DNA from: a virus
Length of the DNA: 42,840 nt
Strand: one strand, 5' to 3'
IMG/VR virus record: IMGVR_UViG_3300045988_034730
The translations under genes were made by a program, and so were the position numbers. The notes beneath the pieces were generated by a model, which worked only from the letters and a program-made list of their open reading frames with translations, was not told the origin of the DNA and did not search any database. Of the stretch, positions 7,438 through 41,324 are shown in pieces (the first letter of the stretch is position 1; every line of letters begins with the position of its first letter).

Positions 7438-7498
7438 AGAAAATAAATCGCTTAAGTCCATTATAGCCGACTTGAGCGCCAAAATCAAGGAGGTACTT

Positions 7499-12939: not shown

Positions 12940-12949
12940 GGAGGATATT

Positions 12950-20175: not shown

Positions 20176-21606
20176 ATGATCATCTTAAGAAGCAGATCTC
20201 TTATTATTCCGACTGACGAGTACAATCTTGGCAATGACTATGACACTAATACAGCGACAAGAGTTTTTCAACTTGAGCGTGTGATGGAAGGCATAGACCT
20301 TGCCAATCTCATGTTTAAGCTGGATCTCACCTACGCAGACGGTACAAGCGATACGCTTGCACTCGATAGCGAAGTCACAGACGATAAGATCAACCTTACA
20401 TGGACCGTGACAAAGAATCAGCTTCATGTTCCGGGAACTGTCGTGGTACAGATCCGTGCGCTGAATGTGGACGGAAATATGAAGTGGACTTCCTACATCG
20501 GTGCGTTCTTTGTTGAAGCGTCTATGTTTGGCAGTGCTGATTATAGCGGAAAGCTCACCGAAGTCGAGCAGTTTGAGGTTGCGATTAAATCAGAAAAAGA
20601 ACGTGTACAGAACGAAAAAGCCAGACAGGACGCAGAAGCAGAGAGAGTACAAGCCGAAGCGGAGCGCAAGCCTGCCGAAGAAGAAAGGAAAACTGCCGAA
20701 GCGGAACGCAAATCTGCCGAGACGGTACGTTCCAATGCAGAGACAGCGCGAGAATCGGCGGAAACAGAACGTGAAAAGTGGTACAATTCAGCAAAGACAA
20801 ACTTTGATGCGGCAATAGCTTCAGGCGATAAGGCAGAGGAGATTGCAAACTCATTGGAGACCAATGTGGAGGCCAACATGAAAGCGGCAGCGGCTTCTGC
20901 AACGGCAGCGGCTGGGTCTGCATCAGCGGCAGCAGGATCAGCGAACGAAGCGAAGCAGTATAGCCAGAACTGGTCGGCATTAGATCAGAGAGTAACGAAA
21001 AACGCCGACGACATCGCTGCCACAAATAACAATTTGAGTAAGAGATTATTAGTTGGAAACAATATTGCATCTGCTGATCTCTCAAATGATATGCCTGATG
21101 AACGATTTGGCACATTATCTATGCGTTTTAGTGACGGAACAATAAATCAATTAATACTCTTAAAGGACACAGCGAATGTTTCCATTTTTAGAGATAATAA
21201 ATGGATAGAACAATATTGGTTTGCAACAACGTCAATGTTGTCCGATTATGTTCCCAAGTCAGATCTCGTTGCTTCCTCTTCGGACATACAGTCAAAACAA
21301 AACATTACTGACAGCTCATACATTAAATTTTATAAATACGGAAAGATTGTCGTTGCGCATATTCAAATAACAACAACATCGAATTTATCTGGATACGATA
21401 CGCTAAAAGTGGGAGTTGCCCCGAATGGATTCAAACCATTGTATGAATGCAGAAGCGTCGTTCTTATGCAACAAACCAATGTATCGAGAATTTTAGCATT
21501 CACAACATATGGCGATATTAATTTATGGAACTGGTCATCGGATAGTTCTATCACAACTCCATCCGGTAGCGCATTAAATGGTTTCGCGGTGTATTGCGTT
21601 GCTTAA
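20176..21606 (+). CDS. Tail fibre / receptor-binding protein. It has a constant N-terminal part, a coiled-coil stalk and a variable C-terminal cassette.
   Basis: N-terminal anchor domain, then Ala/Glu/Arg-rich heptads AEAERKPAEEERKTAEAERKSAE. After base 21042 the coding sequence becomes AT-rich and encodes a beta-rich C-terminal domain. Confidence 0.55.
   Translation: MIILRSRSLIIPTDEYNLGNDYDTNTATRVFQLERVMEGIDLANLMFKLDLTYADGTSDTLALDSEVTDDKINLTWTVTKNQLHVPGTVVVQIRALNVDGNMKWTSYIGAFFVEASMFGSADYSGKLTEVEQFEVAIKSEKERVQNEKARQDAEAERVQAEAERKPAEEERKTAEAERKSAETVRSNAETARESAETEREKWYNSAKTNFDAAIASGDKAEEIANSLETNVEANMKAAAASATAAAGSASAAAGSANEAKQYSQNWSALDQRVTKNADDIAATNNNLSKRLLVGNNIASADLSNDMPDERFGTLSMRFSDGTINQLILLKDTANVSIFRDNKWIEQYWFATTSMLSDYVPKSDLVASSSDIQSKQNITDSSYIKFYKYGKIVVAHIQITTTSNLSGYDTLKVGVAPNGFKPLYECRSVVLMQQTNVSRILAFTTYGDINLWNWSSDSSITTPSGSALNGFAVYCVA
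21024..21041. repeat. Left copy of an 18-bp perfect inverted repeat, aaataacaatttgagtaa. It lies inside the fibre gene and encodes NNNLS.
   Basis: Exact reverse-complement match to 21860-21877. The position within the codon frame is the same in both copies. Confidence 0.8.
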
Positions 21607-21888
21607 TCAGATCTTTTTCCATGACAGAGGCGAACCATCCAATGTATACATTCCCGCGTTCGAGACCCCGATTACTAACCAGTTTGAAGCAAAAAAGAAC
21701 ATAGTATTTTTTTCTGGTAACAGGTCTGCTAATTGCCAATCGATGTATCCGATATAAAATTTTGAGTTTTGCCTTGAAAGGTCAACAATATCTTGCAAGG
21801 TTTGATTTGACTTGATAGTACCATAAAAAGACACTTTTTTATTAAGATCTGTCTGTACATTACTCAAATTGTTATTTACATAACACAT
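21607..21888 (-). CDS. Promoterless, opposite-strand alternative C-terminal fibre cassette; a candidate second receptor-binding domain.
   Basis: 93-aa ORF with no ribosome-binding site. An in-frame TGA lies 9 nt upstream of its ATG. Its stop abuts the + fibre stop with zero spacing. It begins MCYVNNNLS, sharing the NNNLS junction with the fibre gene. Confidence 0.4.
   Translation of the reverse strand: MCYVNNNLSNVQTDLNKKVSFYGTIKSNQTLQDIVDLSRQNSKFYIGYIDWQLADLLPEKNTMFFFASNWLVIGVSNAGMYTLDGSPLSWKKI
21860..21877. repeat. Right copy of the 18-bp inverted repeat. On the - strand it encodes NNNLS.
   Basis: ttactcaaattgttattt is the reverse complement of 21024-21041. Confidence 0.8.
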
Positions 21889-21917
21889 TTTAATTCAAAA
21901 AAAGAAAGGAAAAAATT

Positions 21918-22427
21918 ATGAATTTTAAAGAAGCTTTGAAACTAATGAAAAAAGGAGAAAAAGTAAAACTTCCGGGATGGGGAGGTTACTGGTACTGGGA
22001 TCCGAGAAAGGGAACTGTAATGATGCAGTGCCGAAAGGAGGACGCTGATGATGGCGAGCTTCTCGACATCCGCGATACGCAGAGAGTAGAATACACGCTG
22101 CTTAACGTGGCATCAGATGAATGGGAGATTGCAGACGAGCATAATTGCCCGGTGCTGGGTGGAATTGCAACATTTTCTTTCTCAGATGCGATCAGATACT
22201 TAAAACGTGGACTTAAGGTTGCCAGAAAAGGCTGGAACGGAAAGAAACAGTATATTCAGCTGGCCACGGCAATCTCGTATAAATCGGCTGATGGAGAGAT
22301 TGTGAACTGTGATCACGATGCCATCGGAAACAAGGCCATTGCGTTTATCGGCACAAGTGGGGTGCAGATGGGATGGCTTGCATCACAGGCGGACATGCTG
22401 GCAGAGGATTGGACATTCGCAGACTGA
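21918..22427 (+). CDS. Hypothetical protein with two internal copies of a DUF2829-like motif.
   Basis: Repeat 1 is MNFKEALKLMKKGEKVKLPGWGGYWYW. Repeat 2 is FSDAIRYLKRGLKVARKGWNGKKQYIQL. AAAGGAAAA ribosome-binding site. Confidence 0.45.
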   Translation: MNFKEALKLMKKGEKVKLPGWGGYWYWDPRKGTVMMQCRKEDADDGELLDIRDTQRVEYTLLNVASDEWEIADEHNCPVLGGIATFSFSDAIRYLKRGLKVARKGWNGKKQYIQLATAISYKSADGEIVNCDHDAIGNKAIAFIGTSGVQMGWLASQADMLAEDWTFAD

Positions 22428-22610
22428 CCATTTCGGTGAGTTCACCGAGATGGCTTGTTATTAATTTGAGCAAGGACAGGAAGACACAAAAACGGCGGCA
22501 CCGGGGGAAAGCGGGGTGCCGCCAAAAGAAAGGTAGTAGGGATATGGGACCCTACACTAATACAAACGCAGAAAAAGTAAAATTGTGACTATTATTGTAA
22601 AAAATAACAG

Positions 22611-22720: not shown

Positions 22721-23032
22721 ATGGACGAAGCTACAAGAGAAGCATTTGAAAGGATCCATGATGAGGATAAAAGGCAGAACCGTCGGCTGGATGAATTGGA
22801 GAGGGTCACAAAGACTTTGCAGGAGATCACAAGCTCCGTCCAGGAATTGGCACTTAATATGAAGCACATGGCCGAAGAGCAGGCAAAACAGGGGCAGAAG
22901 CTTGACCAGCTTGAAAAAGCACCATTGGACAATTTAAAGGCAGCCGAGGCAACGGCACAGTCTACGATTGTCGGAATTGTTGTAGGAGCACTGGCAACAG
23001 GATTGATTCAGCTAATAGTGGCAAACATTTAA
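22721..23032 (+). CDS. XhlA-like protein: coiled-coil plus a C-terminal transmembrane helix, of the type associated with lysis.
   Basis: GAAGGAG ribosome-binding site. Coiled-coil N-terminus and hydrophobic C-terminus IVGIVVGALATGLIQLIVANI. Confidence 0.5.
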   Translation: MDEATREAFERIHDEDKRQNRRLDELERVTKTLQEITSSVQELALNMKHMAEEQAKQGQKLDQLEKAPLDNLKAAEATAQSTIVGIVVGALATGLIQLIVANI

Positions 23033-23041
23033 GGAGGAGCT

Positions 23042-26000
23042 ATGGCAAGTCAGTTTGTAAAAAATATGGCACAGCAGACAAAAAAGAAAAAAAAACAGCA
23101 GGACGCAGCGGTTGATGCATTAAAAAGCCGTTCTGGAAAGTCTGTAACACAGGTGGAGCAGAGCCTTTCAAACAAATCCATTCAGAATGCTGCGAAGAAG
23201 GTGGATGGAACAAGCGCGTCAAAACCAACTCCAGCAAGGCAGCTTTCGAAACCTGCCAAGAAATCAGACGATGCATGGAACTCCAGCGTAAACGGGGGGT
23301 CAAGCAGCTTTGTAAAGACAATGGCGCAGAATCAGCGTGCACACTACGAAGAAATCAACCGTAATGCGGCTGTTGATGCAATGAAGCAGCGGTTTAGAAA
23401 TACGCAGAATACGCATACAGACTATAATGACAGCTTTTCTAATGATTCCGCGGTTACCCAGAAGAAAGCCACGGCATCAAATGCACAGAAAAACCGCTTT
23501 ACATATTCACCGTCCTATATTCATTCTCAAAAGACAATGGCACAGGATAATAGCACATTGGCTCTTTCCGATGCGCAGAAGAAGAACATGCCGAAGAACA
23601 TCACAGTGAAGAACCAGAACGAACCGAATGCGCGCGTTGTAGACCAGTCCTTCAAGAACTTCAATCCGAATGACCCGAATTATTCCACTCCGGCTGATGA
23701 GCGTAGTTACCGCAATACAAGAGAGGGAGCATATGCCTATAAGCATCCAATCGCAGGTGTGGCAAGCCATGTTATCAACAACATTGGATCCGGCTTTGAA
23801 GGTATTGCCGGAACCGCATACCAGGCAGTGACAGGGAAAAAACTGGACGATCAGTTCTTTAAGGGGACTTATGCGGCGCAGGATGCACAGTCGGGTGTCA
23901 GACGGCGCGTACAGGACGCTACAGGCGGCAGACAGGACGGCATCAGCACCACAGGGGAAAATGCGGCAGGGTTCCTTACGGACACAGGCATGAGCATCCT
24001 TGACAGCGCGGCGAACCGTGCGCTGGCGAGCTATTTCGCACCAGGCAAGGCTGGCGAGGTCGGCGGTCTTGCGCTTATGGCTGGCGGAGCGGCGGCTGGA
24101 CAGCTCACGGATCTTAACCAGAATGAGAAGGTGTCCGGCAGACGGGCGGCAGTTGATGCGGCGGCGAACGGCGCATTTGAGTATTTATCCGAAAAGCTTT
24201 CATGGGACAAGCTGAACGCATTCAAGGACATGGAGGTATCTCCGCACAATGTCGGTGAGGTTATCAAGAGGATTGCACAGCAGGCGGCAACGGAGGGCGG
24301 CGAGGAAGTCTTCTCCACGCTTGCAGATGCTGCGGCAGATAGCTTAATCCTTGGCAACGAAGCAGAATATGTTAGTCAGTATAACGCATATAAGGGAAGC
24401 GGAATGTCCAACGGAGAAGCTATGCAGAATGTGGTTTACAATCTTCTCAAGGAAAGTGCATTGTCCTTCCTTGGCGGCGCGATCTCCGGCGGTGTCATGG
24501 GATCCGGTGCAACCGTCATGAACTACATGAACGCAAAGGCAAACCAGAACTTCACCGAGGATGAACTGCGCCAGACGGCAGATGCAATCGACACAAGCCC
24601 AGAAGCGTATACTCGTGAGGACGGCACTGTTGATACAAAAGGTCTCGACCAGGCGATCGCGACATCGAAAAAACTTTCCGGCTATGCGAATAAGCTTGCG
24701 AATGGGGACATTCTGACTCTTGAGGAACAGCAGGACATTTATAACGGCGTGGAAAGCACCATTGACCGGGCAGCAGATGCAAAGGGTGTTGCGCCTGTCA
24801 TTACCGAGGACAAGAACCTGGATGAGATGGTCAATGACTGGGTTGAGGAAGCGACAGCACAGGAAGAAGAACGTGCGAGCAGTGAACCTATTTCTCTTTC
24901 ATCTACACCAGAAGAAGCCAAAGCGTCCACACAGGCGGCGATTGATGCGATTAACAGCCCGGTCAATGTGGTAGATGAAACAGCCGCAGAACCGGTCACA
25001 GAGAGCCAGGCAAGCCCGGCGGAACAGCTTGCCACAGAGCTTGCACAGGAATCCGCACAGGGCACGAACGAGAATCCGCCAGAGGAGTACATGGATGCCC
25101 AGGATATGGAACCGGACACAGCTATGTCCGGTCAGGCTGACGATATTGTTGACGTCAACAATATCGTGCCGGAAGATGATGCCCCAACGCTTCCGGGCAT
25201 CGAAGAACTTTCTAACCAGTATACCGGAAATGTTAAGACATCCTTTGAAAACGGATATGAAGGTGTAGATATTCTGTGGTATGATGATAATATGAGAAAG
25301 GTATACCAGGCAGCAGTGAAGGGAGAAACTCTGCGGGATCTTATGCAGAACGATACAGATTTTCAGAAGTTTTTCAGCAGTCCTTATGGGGACGCGGTTC
25401 TTCCCTTCTACGATGCGGCATATGCCGAAGGAGTAAAGACCACAGGAGGTAATGGTTATGGCGATTTACACAACAATGATGAAGTACGTGACGAAGGAGC
25501 AGTACGACAGCCTGTCGAGGTTCGGGAAGGAGATCTTGGAGGATCTGATCCGGTACGCGCCGAAGAAGTTACAGACGATGCAGCAGGACGGCAGCCTGTA
25601 TCCGACCTTGAAGAAGTCGGGGGATCAGATGTTGGATCGGTATCTGGATCTTCTGGACGCGGGGTATCAGGACAACGAAGCACTGGAAGTAGTGCGGGAG
25701 ATCAAGTATCAGATCACGTCGGAGGAAGAGACGGAGGAGTAACGCCGCCGGAGCTGGTTCAGAGTGCGCAGAATGGCGTCACATCGGATAATGACCAGAA
25801 TATTACAACTGAATCAACGCAGAAAACGGAACAAAACGTACCGAACACGAATTCAGGCACAGAAGAAACGGTTGGTAACTTAACTAACTCAACTAACTCA
25901 ACTTCTAACTCAACTGAACCGAGTTATAACTCGAATAATTCAATTAAAGAGCAGAATAAAGAGAAAGATAAAAAGCCGACCAAAAAGAAAGCTGAGAAGA

Positions 26001-29000
26001 AAGCACCGAAGGAAGCTGTAACTGTTGAGGAGCAGACAGAGCAGAAGAAGGAAATTGCCACACAGGAGAAGCCGAAGGGGAATAACTATGTCCTCACGGC
26101 TGAGTCTGCAAAAAGCATTCCTTCCACGCCTGCAACGAGGCTTTCTGCGAACCTTGATGCAGTAAAGACCTTAAAGGACATCATGGCAGGAGACCGTATT
26201 GCGACAGCAGAGGAGCAGACGATCCTTGCGAAGTACACCGGATGGGGCGGCATCGGGGAAGATATGTGGAAGCGCGCGGAAACGGAACTTTCCGGGATTC
26301 TCACTGATGAGGAGCTGAAGACAGCAAGATCGTCTATCACCGATGCGTACTACACGGATCCGGCAATCATTAACGGCATGTATAAGGGCTTACAGTCCAT
26401 CGGTTTCAATGGTGGTAAGCTCTTGGAACCGTCTGCCGGTGTAGGAAGGTTCATCGGTGCAATGCCGTCTGATCTTATCCCTTCCGTTCGCTCTTGGACG
26501 GCTGTGGAGCTTGATACGGTCACGGGTAATATTGCAAAGGCGCTCTACCCGATTGCCGATGTGCGTGTACAGGGCTTCGAGAAAGCGATCCTTGCGAATG
26601 GCTATATGGACGCTGTGGTTGGCAATGTACCGTTTGGTGAGTACGGAGTCACAGATAAGCGCTACCCGTCTGCCATTACATCGAAGATCCACAATTATTT
26701 CATTGCGCGTTCTCTCGACACACTGCGTCCGGGCGGTATTGCCTGCCTTATCACTTCCAGCGGTACGATGGATGCAAAGGGAGAGGCTGCACGGAAATAT
26801 TTCAGCGGACAGGCTGATTTAATCGGAGCAATCCGTCTTCCGAATACCGCATTCAAGGGTACCGGAACGGAAGTAGTGACGGACATTCTGGTATTCCAGA
26901 AACGTGCGGCAAATACTCCGTATCAGGGCGAAGCCTTTCTCGGAACGAGCTGGCAGTATAACACAGGAGATATCAACCAGTATTTTGCCGATCACCCGGA
27001 AATGGTTCTTGGAAGAGCCAGAAGAACAACGGGGCAGTTCGGACGTACAGTCACGACTTACGATCCGCTTGAGGGAAAAGGCAGCTTAGAGGAGCAGATT
27101 ACAAAGGCATTCCAGCACATTGACCGCAAGATGGAATATCCGAAGGTGAATCATCACGAGGAAGCTGTCAAGGCGGTCAAGGAAGCCAGAAACAAGAAGC
27201 AGGGAACGGCGTACAAAAAGGACGGCAAGCTTTATAAAAATGACGGCGGAGTGGAGACGGAATTAAACCTTGAAGCGAAGGAGAAGGCCATCTATGAGGG
27301 AGCTGTTGAGATACGCGACACGGCACGCAACCTTGTGGATGCGATGCTGACCGGAAAGTCTGATGCGGATATTGCAAAGCTCCGTGAACGTCTGAATAAG
27401 CAGTATGATAACTTCACAGCGAAGTACAAGAACGGTTTCCATACGCCTGCAGTCAAAAAAGTCCTTAGGAACGACACGGACTATGCGTTCTTACAGTCCT
27501 TGGAGAAGGTCAAGGATAAGACCGTCTCTAAGAACGATATTTTTACGAGGAACACGGTCAATCAGGCAGTGGATATTACATCAGTCAACACGGTTTCTGA
27601 TGGTATCGAGGTTTCTTTAAATCAGTTAGGATATATTGATTCCCAGAAGATTGCAGACCTGATGCGTAAGCCGAAAGCAGAGGTTGAGAAGGATCTTGAT
27701 ACCGGAGATCTTGCGTTCCGTGACGCAGACGGGAACTTTGTCAGTGCCACTACATATCTTTCCGGTAACGTCCGGGCAAAGCTCAAGGAAGCAGAGATGC
27801 TTGCGGAGGGCAATCCTGAGTACAAAAAGAATGTGGATGCACTTAAGAAGGTTGTCCCGGCATATAAGCATGGAAAGGATATCTCTGTCAATCTTGGTGT
27901 TACATGGATCCCGGCAGAGCTTTACGGGGATTTTGCGTCCGAACTTCTTGGAGGAAATCCAGGGGACGTAACAGTCACATATTCCAAAGTCGGCGGCTAT
28001 GACGTAAAGGTCAATCGTTATTCTCTTTATCGGACAGCGGAGAACACGAAGATGTTCGGTAATAAGTATATGGGATTCCTTTATTCAAACAACAACGACA
28101 GGGGAATGCTTTACAACATTCTTAACAACAGGGATCTCACGGTAAAGTCAACGGATCTTGACGGAAAGAGTGTTCCAAACTTGGAAGCCACGGAAGCTTG
28201 CAAGGAGTTAAAGAACAAGATCACGGACGAGTTCAATAAGTGGCTGTGGAAGGACGAGGGACGGCGCACGCAGCTTGAGGAAGTCTACAATGACAGCTAT
28301 AACGCAATGGCGCGGGCGCATTATGACAGCAAGGTTACAATTCCGGGGCAGACTGCGGATATTCAGCTGCGCGATCATCAGGGGTCCGCAATCAACCGCA
28401 TTGTGCAGTCCCCGTATAATACGTTGCTCCAGCACGGCGCAGGAGCCGGTAAGACCTTCGCGATGATCGGTGCAACAAAGAAACTCCGTGAACTTGGCAT
28501 CGCAAAGAAGCCGGTCATTGTCGTTCCAAAGAACAAGGTCGGTGACTGGATCAACGACTATTACAAGATGTTCCCGACTGCGAATGTACTCGTGGCGGAT
28601 GACACCACATTTACAGCGGCAAACCGGAAGGAGTTCACGAACCGAATTGCCACAACAGACGTGGATGCAGTCATTATCTCTAAAGAACAGTTCCAGAAGA
28701 TTCCAATGTCAGAGGAATATCAGAAGGACTTTATCCAGGAACAGATTGACTCCATCATTGCCATGCAGGAGGAGTTGAAAGCGAATAAGGGTGGTAATCC
28801 GTCTACCACGAGACAGCTTGAAAGCCGCAGGAAATCGCTGCAAAATCGTCTGAATAAGCTGGCAGACGCAAAGCGTGATACCGACAATATCACCTTTGAG
28901 GAGACGGGAATTGACTATGTGTTCGCTGATGAAGCCCAGGCCTATAAGAACCTTGCCTATACGACAAATCTGTCCAATGTTGCTGACATGGGAAAACCGG

Positions 29001-32000
29001 ACGGAAACCAGATCACGTTTGACATGAAGATGAAAACAGATTATGTGCGGAACATGCAGGGCGGTAAAGGCGTTGTGTTTGGCACTGCAACTCCGGTTAT
29101 GAACTCTCCAGTAGAAGCGTATGCGATGCTTCAGTATCTTTGCCCGGAAGAATTGGAGAAGCGCGGTATCTATAATCTGGACAACTTTATTGATATGTTT
29201 GGGCGTATTGAGGGTATCACAAGGCAGGATGCAGTCGGAAGATCATGGATCAACCGGAACTCCTTCACCGGTTTCATCAACATGGGTGAATGGCAGCAGA
29301 TCTGGGGAACCGTTACGGACCGCGTACGGACACAGGACGTGCCGGGAATCAAGCTTCCGAAGATGAAGGGCGGAGACCGTAACGTGGTGATTTGTCAGGC
29401 TGGTCAGAAAGCAAGGGAAACCATCAATGGACTTGCAGACCGGTTAAAGACAGGAGATCGCAAAGGAAAAGACCATATATTCGCATTGCAGAGTGATGGT
29501 AAAAAGGCATCGTTCTCCCAGCGCATGATTGACCCGTCTCTTCCGTATGGTGCGAACGAGAAAGTTCCGACCGCGGTAAATGAAATTTACAAGATCTGGA
29601 ACGAGTCTAAGACTTTTACAGATGTGAACGGCAACACGCAGGAGAACGGCGTTCAGCTTGTATTCTGCGACTATGGTGTGCCGAAAACAGAAAGTAAGAG
29701 CAAGACCACGAGTAGCGTGGAGACCGAAGCGGAAACGGACGAGTCCTACAATCCGAACGAAGAATTTTTCGATTCACGGGTCAATGTCTATCAGGACATG
29801 AAAGACATGCTGATTGAGAAGGGTGTACCGGCAGATCAGATCGCATTCATTCACGATGCGACGAACGACGCAAAGCGGAATGCCCTTTACGAGAAGATCC
29901 GGAGCGGAGAGGTGCGTATTCTCATTGGTTCCGCAAAAAAGATGGGTGAGGGGCTTAATGTGCAGGATCGTGTTGTTGCACTGCATGAAATGAACCCGCT
30001 TGCAAGACCGGGAGATATTGAGCAGGTAGAGGCGCGTGCAATCCGACAGGGAAACCTTTCACCGGAAGTCGCAGTAAATGTCTACGTTACGGAAGATACC
30101 TTCGATACGAAGCAGTGGGATACATTACGGGCAAAATCCCAGTTCATTGACGAGATCACCAGTGGAACGTATAGCGGAAACAACGCGGACTTCTCTTCTA
30201 ATGAATTTGGCGCGTCTGCTGGAGACATTATGGCGGTAGCGTCTGGCAATCCGCTTTTGAAAGAACAGGCGGACAACAATGATAAGCTCCGCAAACTGGA
30301 AGGCTTGAAAAAGCAGTTTGACCGCAGTATCTATGATGCACGTGTGGACTTAGAGCAGACCGAACGCCGTATCCGCAATACCAAAGAAATGCTTCCGAAG
30401 TATGAAGCGGACGCAAAGAAGGTCATGGACCTTACTGGAGATAATTTCAAAGGAATGGTTGGTAAGAAGTCCTTCACGAACCGCGAGGAGTTTGGTGCAG
30501 CACTCATTGTGGCGGCAAAGAAAGCGCAGGTCGCAAGGGCTGACTCCACGAAGGTCGGTTCCATCAGTGGCTTTGACATCTATGCAGGGCATGATGGTGG
30601 CGTGATCCAGCTTGTAGGCGAGGCGTCTTACGGTTCCCAGATCAACCTGTTTAGCTCCAAAGGAACGACTACGATGGTTGTGAACGCTGTGAAGAAGATC
30701 CCGAATCAGCTTAAGAGTGCGCAGACATCTCTGTCTGTGGACGAGGCGAATGTTCCGAAGCTGAAAGCAGTAATCGGTTCGGAGTTTTCAAAGGCAGATG
30801 AGCTGGCGGCAACAAGAAAACGTGCGACAGAGATCGAACAGGAGCTTCTTGCCAATAATGCGGAGGCTGTTTCCGATGCGAAGGAAAGCAGCGAGGGCGG
30901 AGTTTATGCGAGAAAGCTCAAGGCGGCAGGTATAAAGCCGAAAGCAGCGGCAGGTAAGCCGGTCACAGGCAAGAGCGCGGTGCAGGGCTTTATCAGCCAG
31001 ACGAGTGATGCAAGGCCGCAGGATTGGACAGCAGAGAAGAATACGAACAGTACAGCGGAACATGCGAAACCACTTGCGGAGATCATCGGAAAGGCGATGC
31101 ACGATTTCGGAATTAACCTTGATACCGGATATGTCCGTGGTGCTGGCGTAACCGGTCAGTACAACACGAATGACAAGGGATTGAGGACAAAGATTGCCAA
31201 CGACCTTCCGTCTGTGTCTCACGAGTTCGGTCACTGGCTGGATGATAAGTACAATATTCTGAAAGATACGGCGATCCCGAAGGCTGCTGAGGAGGACTTC
31301 CAAAAAGCATTTGAGAAGGAGCCGGGGAATAAGGCGGCGTATGATCCTTCACTTCATAAGATCGAGGGTGTTGCGGAATTTATCCGGTACTATCTCCAGA
31401 ATAAGGACACAGCAGCGATTGACTATCCGGCGGCAACAGAGTATATCAAGAAAAAGATCACCAATCCGACAGAGCTGGCACGTTTTGAGCGGTTCGCGGA
31501 CGAGGTAAACGCATATTATTCCGAAGGTGCAAAGAGTGCGGCAAGTGCTCTGGTGTATAAGGAAAACCGCATCAGTGATTACCGTACAACGAAAGAAAAA
31601 GCGCAGGACGCAGTAGATAAGCGTATACAGGAATGGGTAGATTCCAACCATGCAATCCGGTTACTTGACCGGAAAACAGGTGGAAAAGCGTATGTCATGG
31701 CGTCCAATTCGGCATACTCAGAAGCCCGCGCAAAGCAGATCCTTGAAGGGGACTTACTGGATATCAACGGAAACTACGTCGGTCATGGTTTGAAGTGGGC
31801 ATTACAGGGTATCAATACAGTAAATAAGGAAGAGTACACAGCATTCAACGAGTATCTGACGGTTCTTCACGGTATCGAGTGGATCGAAAACGGCAAGCGT
31901 GTATTTGCTGATGACCGGATGAACAACCGACAGTGGATGGCAAGCCGCGCACTGGAACTTGAGAACGAATATCCGAAGTTCAAAGAAGCAGCAAAGCGTG

Positions 32001-34960
32001 TGTTTGAATTTACCGATCTCTTCACACGCACCTACGGTCTTGGAACCGGACTTATCTCAAAGGATCGTTATCTTGCCATGAAGAAACTGTATCAGCGGTA
32101 TGTTCCGTTCTTCCGCGCTGGATTTAAGAACCGCGGTAATTCTCTTGCGAAAGCGAAGGGAAGCGGACGACAGATTATCATGCCGGTGGACAATATCATG
32201 GATATGGTCAACAAGATGGTTTCCACGGCAACCAGAAACAGCACACTGCTTGAGATCCGTAAGGCATCTACGGAACTCGGAGCAGATGCCACCTTACTCG
32301 AGAGAATCCCGGATCCAAAGGTCCCGAAGCAGATCAACATCAGCGATCTAAAGCAGGAGATTTATGAATCTGCGGGTGACAAAGAAATGTCTGCGGATGC
32401 ACTGGACGTTCTTGACGATGTTCTCGGTACATTGGATGATGTGTATACACAGTTCGAGCTTGGTAAGGCAAACCAGAAAAAAGGGGAAATCTGCATTCTT
32501 GTAGACGGCAAGCCGGAGTTCTGGAAAGTGAATGACGAGCTTCTTCTGGACAGCATCAGCAACATGTCTCCGGGGCATCTTGGGGCAGTCCTTGGCACCT
32601 ATGGGAAGATCACGAAGTTCATGACTGCCAATATCACCGGAAACAACATCATTTGGAGCGCATTCTCCAATGCACCACGTGATTTGCAGACGATGTTCAA
32701 CTATGCGAAACAGACAAAGAACCCGGCTAAGCTTTTTTCTGGAATCGCCAGTGCTTATCTCAACTCTTTCAAAGAGGCTAATGGTAAGGAAGTGTCTCCA
32801 CTTTATCGCGAATACTTGGCAATGGGCGGCGGTAATACCGGCGTATGGCAAGGCAGTGAGAAGTACGCAGCTGACATCCGGAAGTCTTTAAATAGTACTG
32901 GGCTGAATAAGAAGGGCAACGCAGACCACTTCTATAAGCATCCTGTATCAAGCTTCTTCGGGGCGATTTCTGTGCTTTCAGATACCATTGAGCAGGGACC
33001 GCGTTTCGCGATTTACAGCTTATGCAGACAGCAGGGAATGACTCAGCAGGAAGCATTCCACGAAGCAACAGATATCACGGTGAACTTTAGACGCCACGGG
33101 ACAAATTCCAAAGCGGCGAATGCGGTCATTCCGTTCTTTAATGCCGGTATTCAGAGTACGGATAAGACGATCCGGTATTTTACCGGTGAGGATCTGAAAG
33201 GCACGAAATACACGGCGAAGCAGCGCGGCAAGATCATATTCCAGAGATGGGCATTCCTTGCGGTAACGTCTATGATTATGACAGCCATTGAATACGCATT
33301 AAACCATAAGAGCAAGGACGATAAGGAGAACTATAACCAGTTAAGCAACCATGTGAAGAACTCAAACTTCCTTATTCCTCTTGGCAAAGGAAAGTATTTT
33401 GCACTCACGAAATCACATGAGCTTGGAATCCCGTCCTCTGCAATGGAGCGGATACTGGAACTCACGCAGGACGATCAGGATCATGCGTTTGACGATTTTG
33501 CGGCATACGCGACATCGAATTTCCTTCCTTCTATCGTCTCTGATCTTGTGGAAATGCCGTTTAATGTGGCGAGTGAGGGACTTTACGATGCTTCGAAGGA
33601 TGCATTAACTGGAGCAATCAGTTCAACGGGAATCTTCGGCGTTGGCGCTGCGATCAACGCAAACAAAGATTATCTCGGCTCCCCGATTGTCAGCAGTTCT
33701 CTTGAGGGTAAAGTTCCGAAACAGCAGTATACAGCAAGAACGAGTCATGCGGCGTACCTTATGGGACAGTTTTTGAATCTCAGCCCGCAGCAGATCGACT
33801 ACTTTGGTAAGAATGTTCTTGGCGGATACTGGACATACCAGACGGCACTTTTTCCTGTTAATGATGGCAAGGGTGTGAAAGGTAAACGCGACTGGACGCT
33901 GGGAGTTAAGAACACCTATAACAAGGATAATATCTACTCACAGGATCTTGCAAACTGGATGTATGACAAGGCAGATGAATCCTCGATGTACGCGAAGTCT
34001 TACCCGGATAACAAGACGTATCTCTTAGAATCCTCACAGGACAGTGCCATGACAAGTTATTATTCAAGGGCGATGGGTCTTGTAAAGGATAATGCGGACA
34101 GCGCGGAGTACCGGATCGTTAAACAGTCTCTTCTTGACAGCATCAAGACATACCAGAAGAAGTCTGACCGCAATGCATGGACGAGTGCGGAGAAATCCGT
34201 CCAGAACTTTGTGAAGAAAACCGGGAATAAGAATGTGCTTCCGGGTGCTCTCAACACAGAGATTACGGACAGTGAGGGAAAGAAGCATTCCCTTAAAGGA
34301 CGCGAGTACATTCAGTATCAGAAGACTTACGAGCAGGCTTACTGGAAGTATGTCAAGGAACAGTTTACCGGGAAGAAGTTCAGCGATGAGGACGCGGCGC
34401 AGGTGCTGTCAACGATCAAAAAGACCGCGAAAGACGTGGCAGATGCGACAATCCTCAAGCAGAAGGGTGTCAAGGTTGCGAAAAGCTCCTCCGGCTTTAA
34501 TTCCTATAAGAGTGCGGCCAGTGACAAGCTGAAAGCGAAGGATAAGGATGCGAACCTTTCTGCAAAGGATGTTTACAATCTTGCTGTTGATTATGCGAAA
34601 GTAAACGGTCTTGATGCGAAGACAGAGTATTACAATGCGTTGTCTGACGATCAGCAAAAGAAGTACGATGAGTGGGAGAAGTATGGCGGCACGTTTGATA
34701 CCTATGACGAGTATCTCGGCACAAGGGATTTCAAGGCTTCAACATACGAGGAATCCGGCGAATCGGTCAGCGGAAGTAAAAAGTATAAGATTGCGAAGTA
34801 TCTGGTGGAACAGGTGCAGAACAACACTTTAAGTTACAATCAGGCAGAGGTGGCATGGGAACTTTCCGGCTACAATAGTAAGAAGGAAAAGAGTGATACT
34901 CTGGATGATTATTATGGTAGTTCGGAATGGTATAAGTTACAGAATATCCTCGGATATTAA
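23042..34960 (+). CDS. Giant 3,972-aa polyvalent protein, DarB-like. It contains an N6-adenine DNA methyltransferase domain, an SNF2/DEAD-like helicase domain, an HExxH motif and a large domain of unknown function.
   Basis: AAGGAGGAG ribosome-binding site. Methyltransferase motif I LEPSAGVG at about 26426-26446 and motif IV GNVPFG at 26621-26638. Helicase Walker A GAGAGKT at about 28439-28456, DEAQ box at 28927-28938, and C-terminal helicase lobe at about 29920-30060. HEFGH at 31220-31234. Lys-rich and duplicated N-terminal modules, and a Ser/Thr/Asn/Lys-rich linker at about 25790-26080. Confidence 0.85.
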   Translation: MASQFVKNMAQQTKKKKKQQDAAVDALKSRSGKSVTQVEQSLSNKSIQNAAKKVDGTSASKPTPARQLSKPAKKSDDAWNSSVNGGSSSFVKTMAQNQRAHYEEINRNAAVDAMKQRFRNTQNTHTDYNDSFSNDSAVTQKKATASNAQKNRFTYSPSYIHSQKTMAQDNSTLALSDAQKKNMPKNITVKNQNEPNARVVDQSFKNFNPNDPNYSTPADERSYRNTREGAYAYKHPIAGVASHVINNIGSGFEGIAGTAYQAVTGKKLDDQFFKGTYAAQDAQSGVRRRVQDATGGRQDGISTTGENAAGFLTDTGMSILDSAANRALASYFAPGKAGEVGGLALMAGGAAAGQLTDLNQNEKVSGRRAAVDAAANGAFEYLSEKLSWDKLNAFKDMEVSPHNVGEVIKRIAQQAATEGGEEVFSTLADAAADSLILGNEAEYVSQYNAYKGSGMSNGEAMQNVVYNLLKESALSFLGGAISGGVMGSGATVMNYMNAKANQNFTEDELRQTADAIDTSPEAYTREDGTVDTKGLDQAIATSKKLSGYANKLANGDILTLEEQQDIYNGVESTIDRAADAKGVAPVITEDKNLDEMVNDWVEEATAQEEERASSEPISLSSTPEEAKASTQAAIDAINSPVNVVDETAAEPVTESQASPAEQLATELAQESAQGTNENPPEEYMDAQDMEPDTAMSGQADDIVDVNNIVPEDDAPTLPGIEELSNQYTGNVKTSFENGYEGVDILWYDDNMRKVYQAAVKGETLRDLMQNDTDFQKFFSSPYGDAVLPFYDAAYAEGVKTTGGNGYGDLHNNDEVRDEGAVRQPVEVREGDLGGSDPVRAEEVTDDAAGRQPVSDLEEVGGSDVGSVSGSSGRGVSGQRSTGSSAGDQVSDHVGGRDGGVTPPELVQSAQNGVTSDNDQNITTESTQKTEQNVPNTNSGTEETVGNLTNSTNSTSNSTEPSYNSNNSIKEQNKEKDKKPTKKKAEKKAPKEAVTVEEQTEQKKEIATQEKPKGNNYVLTAESAKSIPSTPATRLSANLDAVKTLKDIMAGDRIATAEEQTILAKYTGWGGIGEDMWKRAETELSGILTDEELKTARSSITDAYYTDPAIINGMYKGLQSIGFNGGKLLEPSAGVGRFIGAMPSDLIPSVRSWTAVELDTVTGNIAKALYPIADVRVQGFEKAILANGYMDAVVGNVPFGEYGVTDKRYPSAITSKIHNYFIARSLDTLRPGGIACLITSSGTMDAKGEAARKYFSGQADLIGAIRLPNTAFKGTGTEVVTDILVFQKRAANTPYQGEAFLGTSWQYNTGDINQYFADHPEMVLGRARRTTGQFGRTVTTYDPLEGKGSLEEQITKAFQHIDRKMEYPKVNHHEEAVKAVKEARNKKQGTAYKKDGKLYKNDGGVETELNLEAKEKAIYEGAVEIRDTARNLVDAMLTGKSDADIAKLRERLNKQYDNFTAKYKNGFHTPAVKKVLRNDTDYAFLQSLEKVKDKTVSKNDIFTRNTVNQAVDITSVNTVSDGIEVSLNQLGYIDSQKIADLMRKPKAEVEKDLDTGDLAFRDADGNFVSATTYLSGNVRAKLKEAEMLAEGNPEYKKNVDALKKVVPAYKHGKDISVNLGVTWIPAELYGDFASELLGGNPGDVTVTYSKVGGYDVKVNRYSLYRTAENTKMFGNKYMGFLYSNNNDRGMLYNILNNRDLTVKSTDLDGKSVPNLEATEACKELKNKITDEFNKWLWKDEGRRTQLEEVYNDSYNAMARAHYDSKVTIPGQTADIQLRDHQGSAINRIVQSPYNTLLQHGAGAGKTFAMIGATKKLRELGIAKKPVIVVPKNKVGDWINDYYKMFPTANVLVADDTTFTAANRKEFTNRIATTDVDAVIISKEQFQKIPMSEEYQKDFIQEQIDSIIAMQEELKANKGGNPSTTRQLESRRKSLQNRLNKLADAKRDTDNITFEETGIDYVFADEAQAYKNLAYTTNLSNVADMGKPDGNQITFDMKMKTDYVRNMQGGKGVVFGTATPVMNSPVEAYAMLQYLCPEELEKRGIYNLDNFIDMFGRIEGITRQDAVGRSWINRNSFTGFINMGEWQQIWGTVTDRVRTQDVPGIKLPKMKGGDRNVVICQAGQKARETINGLADRLKTGDRKGKDHIFALQSDGKKASFSQRMIDPSLPYGANEKVPTAVNEIYKIWNESKTFTDVNGNTQENGVQLVFCDYGVPKTESKSKTTSSVETEAETDESYNPNEEFFDSRVNVYQDMKDMLIEKGVPADQIAFIHDATNDAKRNALYEKIRSGEVRILIGSAKKMGEGLNVQDRVVALHEMNPLARPGDIEQVEARAIRQGNLSPEVAVNVYVTEDTFDTKQWDTLRAKSQFIDEITSGTYSGNNADFSSNEFGASAGDIMAVASGNPLLKEQADNNDKLRKLEGLKKQFDRSIYDARVDLEQTERRIRNTKEMLPKYEADAKKVMDLTGDNFKGMVGKKSFTNREEFGAALIVAAKKAQVARADSTKVGSISGFDIYAGHDGGVIQLVGEASYGSQINLFSSKGTTTMVVNAVKKIPNQLKSAQTSLSVDEANVPKLKAVIGSEFSKADELAATRKRATEIEQELLANNAEAVSDAKESSEGGVYARKLKAAGIKPKAAAGKPVTGKSAVQGFISQTSDARPQDWTAEKNTNSTAEHAKPLAEIIGKAMHDFGINLDTGYVRGAGVTGQYNTNDKGLRTKIANDLPSVSHEFGHWLDDKYNILKDTAIPKAAEEDFQKAFEKEPGNKAAYDPSLHKIEGVAEFIRYYLQNKDTAAIDYPAATEYIKKKITNPTELARFERFADEVNAYYSEGAKSAASALVYKENRISDYRTTKEKAQDAVDKRIQEWVDSNHAIRLLDRKTGGKAYVMASNSAYSEARAKQILEGDLLDINGNYVGHGLKWALQGINTVNKEEYTAFNEYLTVLHGIEWIENGKRVFADDRMNNRQWMASRALELENEYPKFKEAAKRVFEFTDLFTRTYGLGTGLISKDRYLAMKKLYQRYVPFFRAGFKNRGNSLAKAKGSGRQIIMPVDNIMDMVNKMVSTATRNSTLLEIRKASTELGADATLLERIPDPKVPKQINISDLKQEIYESAGDKEMSADALDVLDDVLGTLDDVYTQFELGKANQKKGEICILVDGKPEFWKVNDELLLDSISNMSPGHLGAVLGTYGKITKFMTANITGNNIIWSAFSNAPRDLQTMFNYAKQTKNPAKLFSGIASAYLNSFKEANGKEVSPLYREYLAMGGGNTGVWQGSEKYAADIRKSLNSTGLNKKGNADHFYKHPVSSFFGAISVLSDTIEQGPRFAIYSLCRQQGMTQQEAFHEATDITVNFRRHGTNSKAANAVIPFFNAGIQSTDKTIRYFTGEDLKGTKYTAKQRGKIIFQRWAFLAVTSMIMTAIEYALNHKSKDDKENYNQLSNHVKNSNFLIPLGKGKYFALTKSHELGIPSSAMERILELTQDDQDHAFDDFAAYATSNFLPSIVSDLVEMPFNVASEGLYDASKDALTGAISSTGIFGVGAAINANKDYLGSPIVSSSLEGKVPKQQYTARTSHAAYLMGQFLNLSPQQIDYFGKNVLGGYWTYQTALFPVNDGKGVKGKRDWTLGVKNTYNKDNIYSQDLANWMYDKADESSMYAKSYPDNKTYLLESSQDSAMTSYYSRAMGLVKDNADSAEYRIVKQSLLDSIKTYQKKSDRNAWTSAEKSVQNFVKKTGNKNVLPGALNTEITDSEGKKHSLKGREYIQYQKTYEQAYWKYVKEQFTGKKFSDEDAAQVLSTIKKTAKDVADATILKQKGVKVAKSSSGFNSYKSAASDKLKAKDKDANLSAKDVYNLAVDYAKVNGLDAKTEYYNALSDDQQKKYDEWEKYGGTFDTYDEYLGTRDFKASTYEESGESVSGSKKYKIAKYLVEQVQNNTLSYNQAEVAWELSGYNSKKEKSDTLDDYYGSSEWYKLQNILGY

Positions 34961-34964
34961 AAGG

Positions 34965-34990
34965 AGACGGGCGTTTGCCCGTCTTTTTTT
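34965..34990 (+). terminator. Strong intrinsic terminator after the giant gene.
   Basis: Stem agacgggc / gcccgtct with a gttt loop, followed by a T7 run. Confidence 0.8.
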
Positions 34991-35090
34991 GTGCGCAAAA
35001 ATAGGTCGGTCGGTTTTTTCTTCGTCAAAAGATAGAATGATGGCATAAAGCGAAAGCTGACTCACGGGAAAGACCGCGTTGGAGGAATTT

Positions 35091-35960
35091 ATGAAGAAAT
35101 TTTTATTTAATCTCCGTGCATTTGACGGTGAAGGCGGCGGAGCCGCTGCCGGTGCAGGAGCGGGCGCAGGTGCCGCAGGCACATCTCAGGCCGCCGCTGG
35201 GAATCAGGCGCAGGGGCTTGTAGCCTCTGATGGTGAGAACGCCACTCACACGGAACAGAGCATGTCTTTTGACGATTATGTCAAAGCCCACAAGGATGAA
35301 GCGAGCAAGTGGTTTCAGAAACAGTTTAACCGGCGTCACGCCGATTACAACCAGTTAAAATCCAGAGCAGATGCATCAGCACAGGTACTGGATGTGCTTG
35401 CCGCAAAATACAATCTGGATGCAAATGATGTTGATGGTATCGTGAAAGCCTTAAACGGAGATGACTCCATGTTTGAGGAACGGGCGATCGAAGCCGGAAT
35501 GACGGTGGAACAGTACAAACGTTTTTCGGAAGCGCAGGCAGAGAACCGCAGACTGCGTGCCGAACAGCAGCAGTTTCAGCAGACACAGCAGATCCAGAGA
35601 CAGATGGAAGAGTGGGACAGGCAGTCGAACAACTTAAAACAGATCTTCCCGGACTTTGACCTTGACACAGAGCTGGAAAACCCAGACTTTGAAAAGGCTT
35701 TAAGAAGCGGTCTCTCCATTGACCGTGCCTTTTATGCGGTTCATGGTGCTGAAATCACATCCGGAGCGATGCAGTACACCGCACAGCAGGTCCGCCAGGC
35801 AACAGCTGAAGATCTTGCCACACGGAGAAACCGTCCGGTTGAGAATGGATTATCTCCAATGGCATCCGCGAAGGTGACAAAAGATGTGCATAACCTTACC
35901 AAGAGAGAGAGAGCGGAACTTGCGAAGCGCTCCATGAGCGGAGAAAGGATCCGCTTCTAA
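35091..35960 (+). CDS. Scaffolding protein.
   Basis: ATG at 35091 sits after TGGAGGAA. The N-terminus MKKFLFNLRAF-DGEGGG resembles the ribosomal protein L27 / Prp cleavage motif. Long alpha-helical, Gln/Glu-rich body. The position before the major capsid gene is typical. Confidence 0.6.
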   Translation: MKKFLFNLRAFDGEGGGAAAGAGAGAGAAGTSQAAAGNQAQGLVASDGENATHTEQSMSFDDYVKAHKDEASKWFQKQFNRRHADYNQLKSRADASAQVLDVLAAKYNLDANDVDGIVKALNGDDSMFEERAIEAGMTVEQYKRFSEAQAENRRLRAEQQQFQQTQQIQRQMEEWDRQSNNLKQIFPDFDLDTELENPDFEKALRSGLSIDRAFYAVHGAEITSGAMQYTAQQVRQATAEDLATRRNRPVENGLSPMASAKVTKDVHNLTKRERAELAKRSMSGERIRF

Positions 35961-35976: not shown

Positions 35977-36972
35977 ATGCGCAAAAAATATATTTTTAAC
36001 ATTCAGGCATTTACAACTGTGCTGAATGCTTCCACATCCAGCACTTCCGGCAACAACCTTGCACCGGAAGTCAAGACCTATTATTCTGATTATCTGATCC
36101 AGCTTGCAGAAGCACAGCTTGTTCACGATCAGTTTGGACAGAAGAGAAACATCCCGTCCGGCAACGGTAAGTCTATCGAGTTCAGACAGTTCACACCGCT
36201 TGCAAAGATCACAGAAGCCCTTGTCGAGGGTGTTACACCGGATGGACAGGCACTTGACACTTCCACGATCACTGCAACTGTAAAGCAGTACGGCGGATAT
36301 GTTGTTATCACGGATATCCTTGACCTTACAGCAATCGACAATATCAAGACGGAAGCTGTTCAGCTTATCGGGTCTCAGGCGGGCAGATCCCTTGATACGG
36401 TTGTCAGAGAGGTGTTAAACGGCGGCACAAACGTCCAGTACCATGAGGGAGAGAGAGCAAGCCGTTCTGCCATCACCGCAACTGATACTCTTACTGTGAA
36501 AGCAGTCAGGGCAGCAGTCCGAACCTTAAAGAGACAGAACGCGGAAACTATCGACGGCTCCTTCGTTGGAATCATCCATCCGGATGTCGCATTCGATCTT
36601 ATGTCTGATCCGACGTGGGTGGAATGGCACAAGTACACGGACAATGACGCAATGTTTACCAATGAGATCGGTAAGATCGCAAATGTCCGGTTTGTCGAGA
36701 CCACAGAAGCGAAGATCTTCGAAGATGCTGGCGGAGCTGCTTCAGCCAAGTTCGACATCTATTCCACACTGATTATCGCAAAGAACGCATATGGTACAAC
36801 GAACATCGAGGGCGGCGGACTTGAGCTTATCACCAAGCAGAAGGGTTCTGCCGGTACTGCGGATCCGCTTGACCAGCGTTCCACTGTCGGTTGGAAAGCA
36901 ACAAAGACAGCAGAGAGACTCGTTGAGGACTACATGGTCCGTATCGAGACAGCCTGCTCTTACGCAGCCTAA
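35977..36972 (+). CDS. Major capsid protein.
   Basis: 331 aa. The N-terminus MRKKYIFNIQAF-TTVLN is a second Prp-type motif. The gene follows the scaffold gene and is followed by a strong terminator, both typical of a major capsid gene. Confidence 0.7.
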   Translation: MRKKYIFNIQAFTTVLNASTSSTSGNNLAPEVKTYYSDYLIQLAEAQLVHDQFGQKRNIPSGNGKSIEFRQFTPLAKITEALVEGVTPDGQALDTSTITATVKQYGGYVVITDILDLTAIDNIKTEAVQLIGSQAGRSLDTVVREVLNGGTNVQYHEGERASRSAITATDTLTVKAVRAAVRTLKRQNAETIDGSFVGIIHPDVAFDLMSDPTWVEWHKYTDNDAMFTNEIGKIANVRFVETTEAKIFEDAGGAASAKFDIYSTLIIAKNAYGTTNIEGGGLELITKQKGSAGTADPLDQRSTVGWKATKTAERLVEDYMVRIETACSYAA

Positions 36973-37362: not shown

Positions 37363-37581
37363 ATGAAGTTATCCAACACAACTTATGATATCCTCAAGTG
37401 GGCCGCGCAGTATCTTCTCCCTGCGGCTGGCACACTGTACTTTTCCATCTCCCAGATCTGGGGACTTCCGTATGGGGAACAGGTGGTCGGTACGATCACT
37501 GCGTTAGACACGTTCCTCGGAGTGCTTCTCGGTCTGAGCAGCAACACATATAATAAGGAGATTCCGACAGATGAGGATTAG
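37363..37581 (+). CDS. Holin (phiLC3/SPP1-like).
   Basis: 72 aa with two predicted transmembrane segments. Characteristic sequence ...KWAAQYLLPAAGTLYFSISQIWGLPYGEQVVGTITALDTFLGVLLGL..., immediately upstream of the endolysin with an overlap. Confidence 0.75.
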   Translation: MKLSNTTYDILKWAAQYLLPAAGTLYFSISQIWGLPYGEQVVGTITALDTFLGVLLGLSSNTYNKEIPTDED

Positions 37582-38457: not shown

Positions 38458-38480
38458 GTATCACACGAAGTATCACACGA
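38458..38480. repeat. Two tandem direct repeats of gtatcacacga(a); candidate arm-type sites on the right side of attP, overlapping the integrase stop codon.
   Basis: Same 12-bp motif and orientation as 38260-38283. Confidence 0.6.
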
Positions 38481-41313: not shown

Positions 41314-41324
41314 AATGACATCAC

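Follow-up and report, generated by a model that had tools for sequence, protein, structure and literature searches.

The viral record IMGVR_UViG_3300045988_034730 of IMG/VR, a stretch of 42,840 nucleotides (nt) that we call the window, carries on its plus strand a single gene (23042..34960, ATG start) that encodes a protein of 3,972 amino acids (aa), with a calculated mass of 437 kDa, and takes up 27.8% of the window. We favour, at a probability of about three in four, a reading of this giant as a polyvalent ejection protein delivered by the virion and endowed with an accessory DarB-type cassette. Polyvalent proteins, with their methylase-helicase dyad accompanied by LPD36 and the clades of their metallopeptidases (MPTases), were defined by Iyer et al. 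2017 (PMC5512222), who found the LPD38 domain confined to the phage-type members. The giant combines several unrelated predicted domains (methylase, superfamily 2 (SF2) helicase, zincin and LPD38) with a late, virion-gene setting, and judged from its sequence it is a phage-type polyvalent protein of this kind. The class is already described, and the protein itself will not surprise a specialist.

Giant polyvalent proteins are common in phages and almost unstudied functionally, and the role of the methylase-helicase of a podophage giant has never been shown. The lineage described here amounts to an experiment of nature: its near-identical phages differ in the presence of a cassette of 1,409 codons, close siblings have swapped leaders, and the core stays constant, which makes the idea of a structural ejection core with an optional anti-restriction cargo directly testable. 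What is new is this sibling pair with and without the cassette, the swapped leaders, and an uncharacterised family of N-terminal domains.

An open reading frame (ORF) of this size might result from an assembly or indel error that fuses several genes, and in one sibling phage (L009, about 96% identical to the window from portal to endolysin) the equivalent is called as two ORFs (906 and 1,569 aa), as a result of a frameshifting 20-nt deletion in the linker (window 25736-25755; L009 12670-12690). However, a twin protein found in a collection of 15 billion proteins (P0053, 3,973 aa) is about 97% identical end to end, and the frame is uninterrupted, as far as the fetched DNA reaches, in three siblings from other samples (L032 and L033, taken from contigs of 42.3 kb and 39.9 kb respectively, and L034, which comes from a viral-metagenome assembly). 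Diverged relatives in 21 GTDB-species genomes, mostly metagenome-assembled genomes (MAGs), have comparable single frames of 3,500 to 4,250 aa, and giants of isolated phages reach 3,639 to 4,515 aa with the same domain order. A fusion artefact is thus hardly credible: the ORF is real, single and intact, as had been claimed from the letters alone for a frame of about 28% of the genome. An exact look-up of the 3,972-aa protein returned no record, and no match came from megablast of its gene against INPHARED phages or from phmmer of the full-length protein against PDB sequences.

Cassette, core and N-terminal domain

The DarB-type cassette (aa 999-2407, 26036..30262, on the plus strand like all other parts of the gene given below) comprises a putative LPD36-like region, an N6-adenine methyltransferase, a spacer and an SNF2/SF2 helicase. 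Every motif quoted in an earlier reading made from the sequence only (hereafter the sequence-only reading) is present: LEPSAGVG (motif I, aa 1128) and GNVPFG (motif IV, aa 1194) for the methyltransferase, GAGAGKT (aa 1799) and DEAQ (aa 1963) for the helicase, whose C-lobe extends to about aa 2374, and HEFGH (aa 2727) further downstream. When the corresponding domains were searched with profile hidden Markov models, the claim stood in part: Pfam Eco57I (28.8 bits, cut-off 25.3) and ResIII (34.4 bits, cut-off 22.5), the latter covering the helicase lobe only, passed their thresholds, whereas SNF2-rel_dom (24.1 bits, cut-off 24.9) and Helicase_C (20.4 bits, cut-off 23.5) fell just under theirs.

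The proposed parallel with P1 DarB and other polyvalent proteins is well supported. PHROG 10089, annotated as 'DarB-like antirestriction', matches aa 851-2748 with 1,326 bits, and BLASTP aligns both the methylase (35% identity, E 7e-26) and the helicase (26% identity, E 9e-29) with P1 DarB, in the same order. The dyad is also 30 to 34% identical, over about 1,600 aa, to Vibrio VvAW1 gp01 and to giants of Klebsiella, Erwinia, Ralstonia and Burkholderia podophages. By homology, the cassette is a member of the P1 DarB methylase-helicase family. As for its LPD36-like region, LPD36 was described as a four-helix domain with a GxGU motif, N-terminal to the methylase (PMC5512222); here, YTGWGGIGE lies shortly 5' of motif I, inside the PHROG 10089 match, and Pfam gave no match to an LPD36 model.

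Fusions of a methylase with an SF2 helicase are typical of restriction and defence systems, and the giant could be a prophage enzyme of defence or superinfection exclusion, of a type ISP/IIG-like or BREX/DISARM-like kind, acting against incoming DNA. A neighbouring slot with conflict genes, such as one for a Tad2-like protein, would suit this idea, as would the only matches of an NCBIfam scan (E<=0.01), to a dnd restriction helicase and the SCO1167 helicase. These matches, however, score 20 to 22 bits for cut-offs of 600 to 1,200. A nuclease or target-recognition domain was found neither in the Pfam and NCBIfam scans nor among the annotations of the five PHROG families matched. Moreover, the closest characterised homologue is an anti-restriction and not a restriction protein, and the gene shares the orientation of the late operon and is coupled in translation within it, outside the lysogeny region. 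We therefore hold a defence function to be very improbable.

Downstream of the cassette, a coiled-coil bridge (aa 2408-2689, 30263..31108), which lies within the DarB-like PHROG match and is kept in L009, leads to a zincin-like metallopeptidase (aa 2690-2800, 31109..31441) with HEFGH at 2727-2731, D2734, E2775 and E2779. This domain fits the signature published for the phage clade of MPTases, namely HExxH, an Asp three residues on, a downstream Glu, and a His ending strand 2 (PMC5512222); the accessory His is a Tyr here. Residues H2727, E2728, H2731, D2734, E2775 and E2779 are each kept in 21 to 23 of 24 aligned sequences (with at most one exception among the sequences that have a residue at the position), and the active site is predicted to be intact.

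An alpha-helical core (aa 2801-3650, 31442..33991) and a Lys-rich helical tail (aa 3651-3972, 33992..34957) follow, the tail being kept among close relatives only. The last 1,200 aa or so had been described as free of motifs; this did not hold, because Pfam LPD38 (PF18857, 86.1 bits, cut-off 27) lies there, at aa 3429-3608 (33326-33865), within a conserved module of about 1,100 aa. The giant's only strongly hydrophobic helix (aa 3398-3416, 33233-33289) also belongs to this core, and keeps its hydrophobic character throughout the 24 sequences of alignment A2. The structural model of the C-terminal core is almost all-alpha, with a mean predicted local distance difference test (pLDDT) of 75.7 and a predicted template-modelling score (pTM) of 0.60. 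The C-terminal module is the best conserved part of the giant and the most telling for its classification.

The module made of zincin and LPD38 has 47 homologues, at 21 to 51% identity. It can constitute a gene on its own: in an Oscillibacter prophage, a complete gene of 1,390 codons (P0022) closes the series of structural genes ahead of the holin, and a 2,130-aa version adjoins the integrase in another relative (L007). Bacillus phage Page gp20 (1,679 aa), directly before the holins, is related to it (pairwise E 8e-15 to the module; LPD38 96 bits). On GTDB genome contigs, a single C-terminal sequence used as query found no relatives, and alignment A2 found 21 loci; with four loci fetched earlier, these gave 25 related open frames for comparison. 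The DarB dyad is present in nine of them. Five giants (3,567 to 4,248 aa) are without it; two of them, L011 and L019, were scanned and have Strawberry-notch AAA_34 and Helicase_C_4 in its place; short forms of 1,419 and 2,143 aa also occur. Precomputed Pfam labels on other homologues of the module, some of them clipped by contig ends, name Zeta toxin, PBECR3 and DdrB-ParB. Within the family so compared, the zincin-LPD38 module is the constant core, and the methylase-helicase an exchangeable cassette that appears to be optional.

The sibling L009 is a case in point. It lacks window positions 26036-30262, a gap of 4,227 nt or exactly 1,409 codons, so that aa 999-2407, with methylase and helicase, are gone in frame. 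The junction (L009 12963-12968) sits at a 6-nt microhomology (GARCAG), with GAGCAG on the left side and GAACAG on the right. Because the right edge cuts inside the DarB-like PHROG match, the absence suggests a loss by L009 and not a gain by the window. The same junction found no match in other metagenomes. L009 demonstrates that the cassette can be separated both from the N-terminal domain and from the LPD38 core.

At the other end, the protein starts with a leader rich in Lys, Asn and Gln (aa 1-199, 23042..23638), in which the duplicated FVK(N/T)MAQ noticed earlier in a Lys-rich N-terminus is confirmed. A module of about 35 aa, FVKxMAQ-(11-13 aa)-AAVDA(L/M)K(S/Q)R, is repeated in tandem at aa 5-31 and 90-118, the first copy with FVKNMAQ (aa 5) and the second with FVKTMAQ (aa 90); aligning aa 1-80 with aa 81-160 gives z = 7.9, a score that none of 300 shuffles reached, and the same alignment test gave no support for a third copy. 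The leader is swapped in the siblings L033 and L034, and that of L033, read from the start codon, has a single module which keeps MAS.F...AAVDSLKQR. Searches of phage and protein collections found leader homologues only in near-identical phages, and tblastn of aa 1-850 against phages gave no match. By analogy with the packaging signal of P1 DarB described below, we consider the leader a candidate capsid-targeting signal.

Behind it lies a conserved, helical, Gly/Ala-rich N-terminal domain (aa 200-520, 23639..24601), with the motifs HP, FL..TG.S, AE..FEK.SL, TEGSEE and FLGGAISGGVMG. A HMMER search of 1.84 billion cluster representatives (clusters defined at 50% identity) retrieved 1,449 proteins at E<=1e-3, of which 294 reached E<=1e-10, with the match nearly always at aa ~90-600 of proteins that are mostly 2,000 to 4,100 aa long. 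No Pfam family matches aa 1-1000 of the giant at E<=1, and the domain is not in Pfam. Among six other giants with this domain, Pfam found PBECR5, PBECR3, ART-PolyVal and LPD3, distributed over three; the remaining three gave no match. The C-terminal module co-occurs in four of the best-scoring 150 family members listed by the profile search, and the two modules are therefore independent. These profile matches delineate a large family of domains of about 320 aa, uncharacterised and independent of LPD38, whose recognition is new.

An AlphaFold2 model of the domain, built on a 15-sequence alignment, has eight long helices (pLDDT 72). Foldseek against the PDB returned no match at E<=0.001 for this model or for the C-terminal one; the weak top matches were TAL effectors, rhodopsins and transporters, which we take for a generic helical resemblance and not for a sign of a membrane protein. 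One could speculate that the domain is a widespread 'delivery chassis', that is, a translocon module engaging the membrane or wall and threading cargoes of several thousand residues (nucleases, ADP-ribosyltransferases, methylase-helicases) in short-tailed phages of Gram-positive bacteria, that works independently of LPD38 and is paired with it in this small lineage only. We put this forward as a tentative idea, more probably wrong than right. The domain is joined to the cassette by an acidic, low-complexity linker rich in Ser, Gly and Asn (aa 521-998, 24602..26035), which matches no family and is presumably disordered.

Delivery with the virion and its alternatives

Several relatives of the giant have been studied as proteins of the phage particle. 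JC1 gp69 (4,515 aa; transglycosylase, methylase, COG4646 helicase, LPD3 and LPD38) is among the proteins that mass spectrometry identified in virions purified on CsCl (PMC9144972). In phi24B, gp47 (2,811 aa; LPD5, LPD1, LPD38 and a metallopeptidase) is abundant in the virion proteome and invisible in the cryo-electron microscopy map, and its authors suggest that it is packaged in the capsid and ejected (bioRxiv 10.64898/2026.04.10.717836). In PTXU04, infection is impaired when the LPD38 protein of 2,198 aa (PTXU04_00025) is knocked down (bioRxiv 10.1101/2023.09.18.558157). P1 DarB is a head protein, present in about 40 copies, and its N-terminal 30 residues suffice for capsid targeting (PMC9024508). 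By analogy, we infer that the giant is packaged and ejected and that it has an anti-restriction activity. Homology and genomic context alike agree with a DarB-like polyvalent protein that is probably packaged and ejected.

The following sequence of events can be proposed. The giant would be made late in infection, and a few copies would enter the procapsid, perhaps steered by the N-terminal MAS.F...AAVD.LK.R leader in the manner of the 30-residue DarB signal. It would then leave through the short tail in a state that is at least partly unfolded, either before the DNA or with it. Two helical modules, the Gly/Ala-rich one at the N-terminus and the LPD38 core that includes the hydrophobic helix, would engage the wall and membrane and help to build or extend a conduit for DNA. 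The zincin may cut the polypeptide and free the cargo. Freed or still tethered, the methylase-helicase would track the entering genome and, in the way of P1 DarB, shield it in cis against type I-like restriction.

A long and helical protein whose gene adjoins tail-fibre-like genes, and which in related prophages is encoded after the tail and before the lysis genes, the usual place of tail-tip genes, could also be an external structural component such as a central fibre, a wall-penetrating needle or a tape-measure analogue, with enzymes as passengers. However, no beta-helix or fibre-like fold is predicted, and an in-frame change of 4,227 nt would be hard to tolerate in a structure that determines a length. 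The fact that phi24B gp47 is abundant in the proteome and absent from the map of tail and capsid shell argues for an internal, disordered location, and P1 DarB resides in the head. We tend to regard a tail-tip role as unlikely.

Another scenario dispenses with injection. The giant would then be a processive orphan methyltransferase-translocase of the cytoplasm, active late or in the lysogen and methylating progeny or prophage DNA before packaging, with the helical parts serving as regulatory or scaffold elements. The methylase and helicase motifs are intact, a second DNA methyltransferase gene and a PAPS-reductase-like gene suggest that the phage invests in DNA modification, and the packaging of the giant itself is deduced from its relatives. 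This is difficult to reconcile, however, with a gene located in the structural block, with an enzyme-free LPD38 core that is the last structural gene of related prophages, and with the physical presence of relatives in the virions of JC1 and phi24B; besides, 437 kDa would be an implausibly costly vehicle for an ordinary methylase. We find this scenario improbable as well.

The reading as a virion-delivered ejection protein meets several difficulties. For the giant itself, we infer virion presence, copy number, ejection, cleavage and methylation alike. Packaging of P1 DarB needs DarA, Hdf, DdrA and Ulx, and none of DarA, Hdf, DdrA, DdrB and Ulx was found among the PHROG matches of the 20 neighbouring ORFs, to which no dedicated search was added. 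Unlike in Bcep22-type proteins, no muralytic domain is found at the N-terminus (Pfam, aa 1-1000, E<=1). The host is Gram-positive and has no periplasm, so that the role of a trans-periplasmic conduit, considered for the giants of Gram-negative podophages, is not directly transferable. The accessory active-site His of most zincin homologues is a Tyr (Tyr2697) in the giant, and no solved structure, those of ejection proteins included, resembles either of the two models, the zincin being the only resemblance to the PDB. Finally, L009 also has the frameshifting 20-nt deletion; it may be a prophage in decay, and in that case it does not prove that the phage can do without the cassette.

The phage genome and its host

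The window is a temperate phage or a prophage, as terminase, portal, integrase and repressor genes are all present. The large terminase (11539-12939) and the portal (12950-14803; the L009 ortholog matches PF16510, P22_portal) are followed by an 'internal virion protein' (15408-17132) and a tail-fibre-like protein (17101-18276). The giant gene lies between the tail-fibre-like genes and two genes of the plus strand, one in the position of a scaffold gene (35079-35960, 293 aa, PHROG 13908) and one for the major capsid protein (35977-36972, 331 aa, PHROG 1357, PF13252/PF25209), co-oriented within the late, structural block. The order of giant, scaffold-position and capsid genes is the same in the siblings L003 and L009. 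Genes for a Dp-1 holin (37363-37581) and an endolysin (37571-38257) form a lysis cassette 3' of the capsid gene, and the integrase (38473-39507) and an ImmA-like protease with the repressor (40882-41750) are on the minus strand.

The placement of the giant between lysis-associated and head genes, as first proposed, is thus right for the downstream side, with its scaffold-position and capsid genes, and not for the upstream side: the gene there (22721-23032) has as its sole match a PHROG labelled 'hemolysin', with no Pfam match, and the lysis genes are at 37363-38257. This upstream gene encodes 103 aa, and its stop codon is overlapped by the Shine-Dalgarno sequence of the giant (AAGGAGG, 23031-23037); the two genes are therefore translationally coupled. 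Similarly, of the strong terminators said to flank the giant, the downstream one stands, a terminator-like GC hairpin with a T-run on the plus strand (34965..34991, hairpin 34965-34984) 5 nt past the stop codon. On the 5' side, about 590 nt with two small ORFs separate the giant from the nearest site that resembles a terminator (22428-22453).

The suggestion of a podovirus-like genome is supported by the PF13252, Pagevirus-type capsid, by the P22-like portal of the sibling, and by the window's ORF list, which has no gene of tape-measure size between portal and giant. The capsid protein is 38% identical to those of Bacillus megaterium podophages of the genus Pagevirus, which makes it fair to deduce a podovirus-like virion. 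We take the window to be a short-tailed, temperate phage of gut Clostridia. The GTDB relatives are labelled mostly Oscillospiraceae, Clostridia or Eubacteriales, with one Erysipelotrichaceae and two binned as Bacteroidales. These two, from a Tannerellaceae bin (L023) and a Bacteroides bin (L029), carry close homologues of the C-terminal module and probably reflect mis-binning of phage contigs in MAGs.

A number of other features of the window were observed. Just 5' of the giant, a slot at ~21045-22603 contains, in an AT-rich stretch (GC 0.36), a gene on the plus strand (21918-22427) for a Tad2-like protein of 169 aa (PF11195, Thoeris anti-defence 2-like, 89 bits; PHROG 1048). This stretch is not kept in the 96%-identical siblings L009 and L032, and the variable slot looks like an exchangeable site for anti-defence or moron genes. 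In the lysogeny region, a 409-aa ORF of the minus strand (39642-40871, GC 0.38-0.43), between the integrase and the ImmA-like protease and repressor genes, matches no PHROG or Pfam family and may be a moron or defence gene expressed during lysogeny.

After the portal, the window has a gene for a Prp-like cysteine protease (~14778-15107, plus strand), whose L009 ortholog matches PF04327. Prp-type leaders start both the scaffold-position protein (KKFLFNLRAF|D, 35079-35130) and the capsid protein (KKYIFNIQAF|T, 35977-36015). Leaders and protease together suggest a Prp-mediated maturation of the head, as in staphylococcal phages of the 80-alpha type. The idea that the duplicated FVKxMAQ module of the giant might be such a cleavage leader was dropped, as no motif resembling FNLRAF or FNIQAF is found in the giant, either N-terminally or internally.

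Genes for a DNA methyltransferase separate from that of the giant (4735-5394) and for a PAPS-reductase-like protein (6544-7395) are present on the plus strand. JC1 has a PAPS-reductase gene too, and the Vibrio PODOV008 phages, with their giant DarB-like proteins, have such genes fused to Dam, so that this co-occurrence may be recurrent. Two genes of the tyrosine-integrase family occur in this single 42.8-kb element (7472-8536, plus strand; 38473-39507, minus strand). In the sibling L003, a reverse transcriptase gene (RVT_1, 12267-13508) after the lysis genes may belong to a diversity-generating retroelement.

Relation to known systems

The general concept of huge or multi-part proteins that a podophage keeps in its head, that leave it with the DNA or earlier and that act immediately in the cell is shared with the virion RNA polymerase of N4-type phages (~3,500 aa) and with the ejection proteins of T7 and P22. 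The enzymatic payload and the envelope to be crossed differ, and no RNA-polymerase family was found in the Pfam and PHROG scans of the giant.

P1 DarB (2,255 aa) shares with the giant a homologous N6-adenine methylase, with GNVPFG as motif IV, and an SNF2-type helicase in the same order. It is packaged in the virion, injected, and protects phage DNA in cis (PMC9024508). P1, however, is a myovirus, and outside the methylase and helicase its DarB has no significant BLASTP similarity to the giant.

Among giants that contain LPD38, phi24B gp47 and PTXU04_00025 share the C-terminal LPD38 signature, as reported in their papers. P0022 and other close relatives have both the zincin and the hydrophobic helix, and Page gp20 has the hydrophobic stretch and LPD38; the genes of Page gp20 and of the Oscillibacter prophage also belong to the same position class, as last structural gene. 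Giants with LPD38 only, or with LPD38 at their end, differ from ours in that they are without the DarB dyad or carry another cargo (LPD1/LPD5, Zeta toxin, PBECR nucleases).

The closest parallel is with the Bcep22-like group (Bcep22 gp75, JC1 gp69, the giants of Klebsiella SopranoGao/LASTA and of Erwinia PEp14/Pavtok), together with Vibrio VvAW1 gp01 (3,639 aa). That podophages encode giant DarB-like proteins was noted as early as Gill et al. 2011, as cited in PMC9144972 and PMC8402733. NCBIfam PLxRFG has no match in the giant (scan at E<=0.01). In the Bcep22-like phages, too, a single ORF within the structural block represents 20 to 30% of a podophage genome, and encodes a methylase, an SNF2 helicase and a C-terminal LPD38 in that order, with about 22% identity to the giant in the C-terminal module in addition to the 30 to 34% found for the dyad. 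Eco57I, ResIII, SNF2, Helicase_C and LPD38 all recur in gp01 of VvAW1, an isolated phage, and a PF13252-type capsid protein recurs in JC1. In contrast, the hosts of the Bcep22-like phages are Gram-negative, and their giants have N-terminal lytic transglycosylase or cell-wall hydrolase domains. Compared with these phages, the window extends the class to temperate podophages of gut Clostridia, which have no periplasm to bridge.

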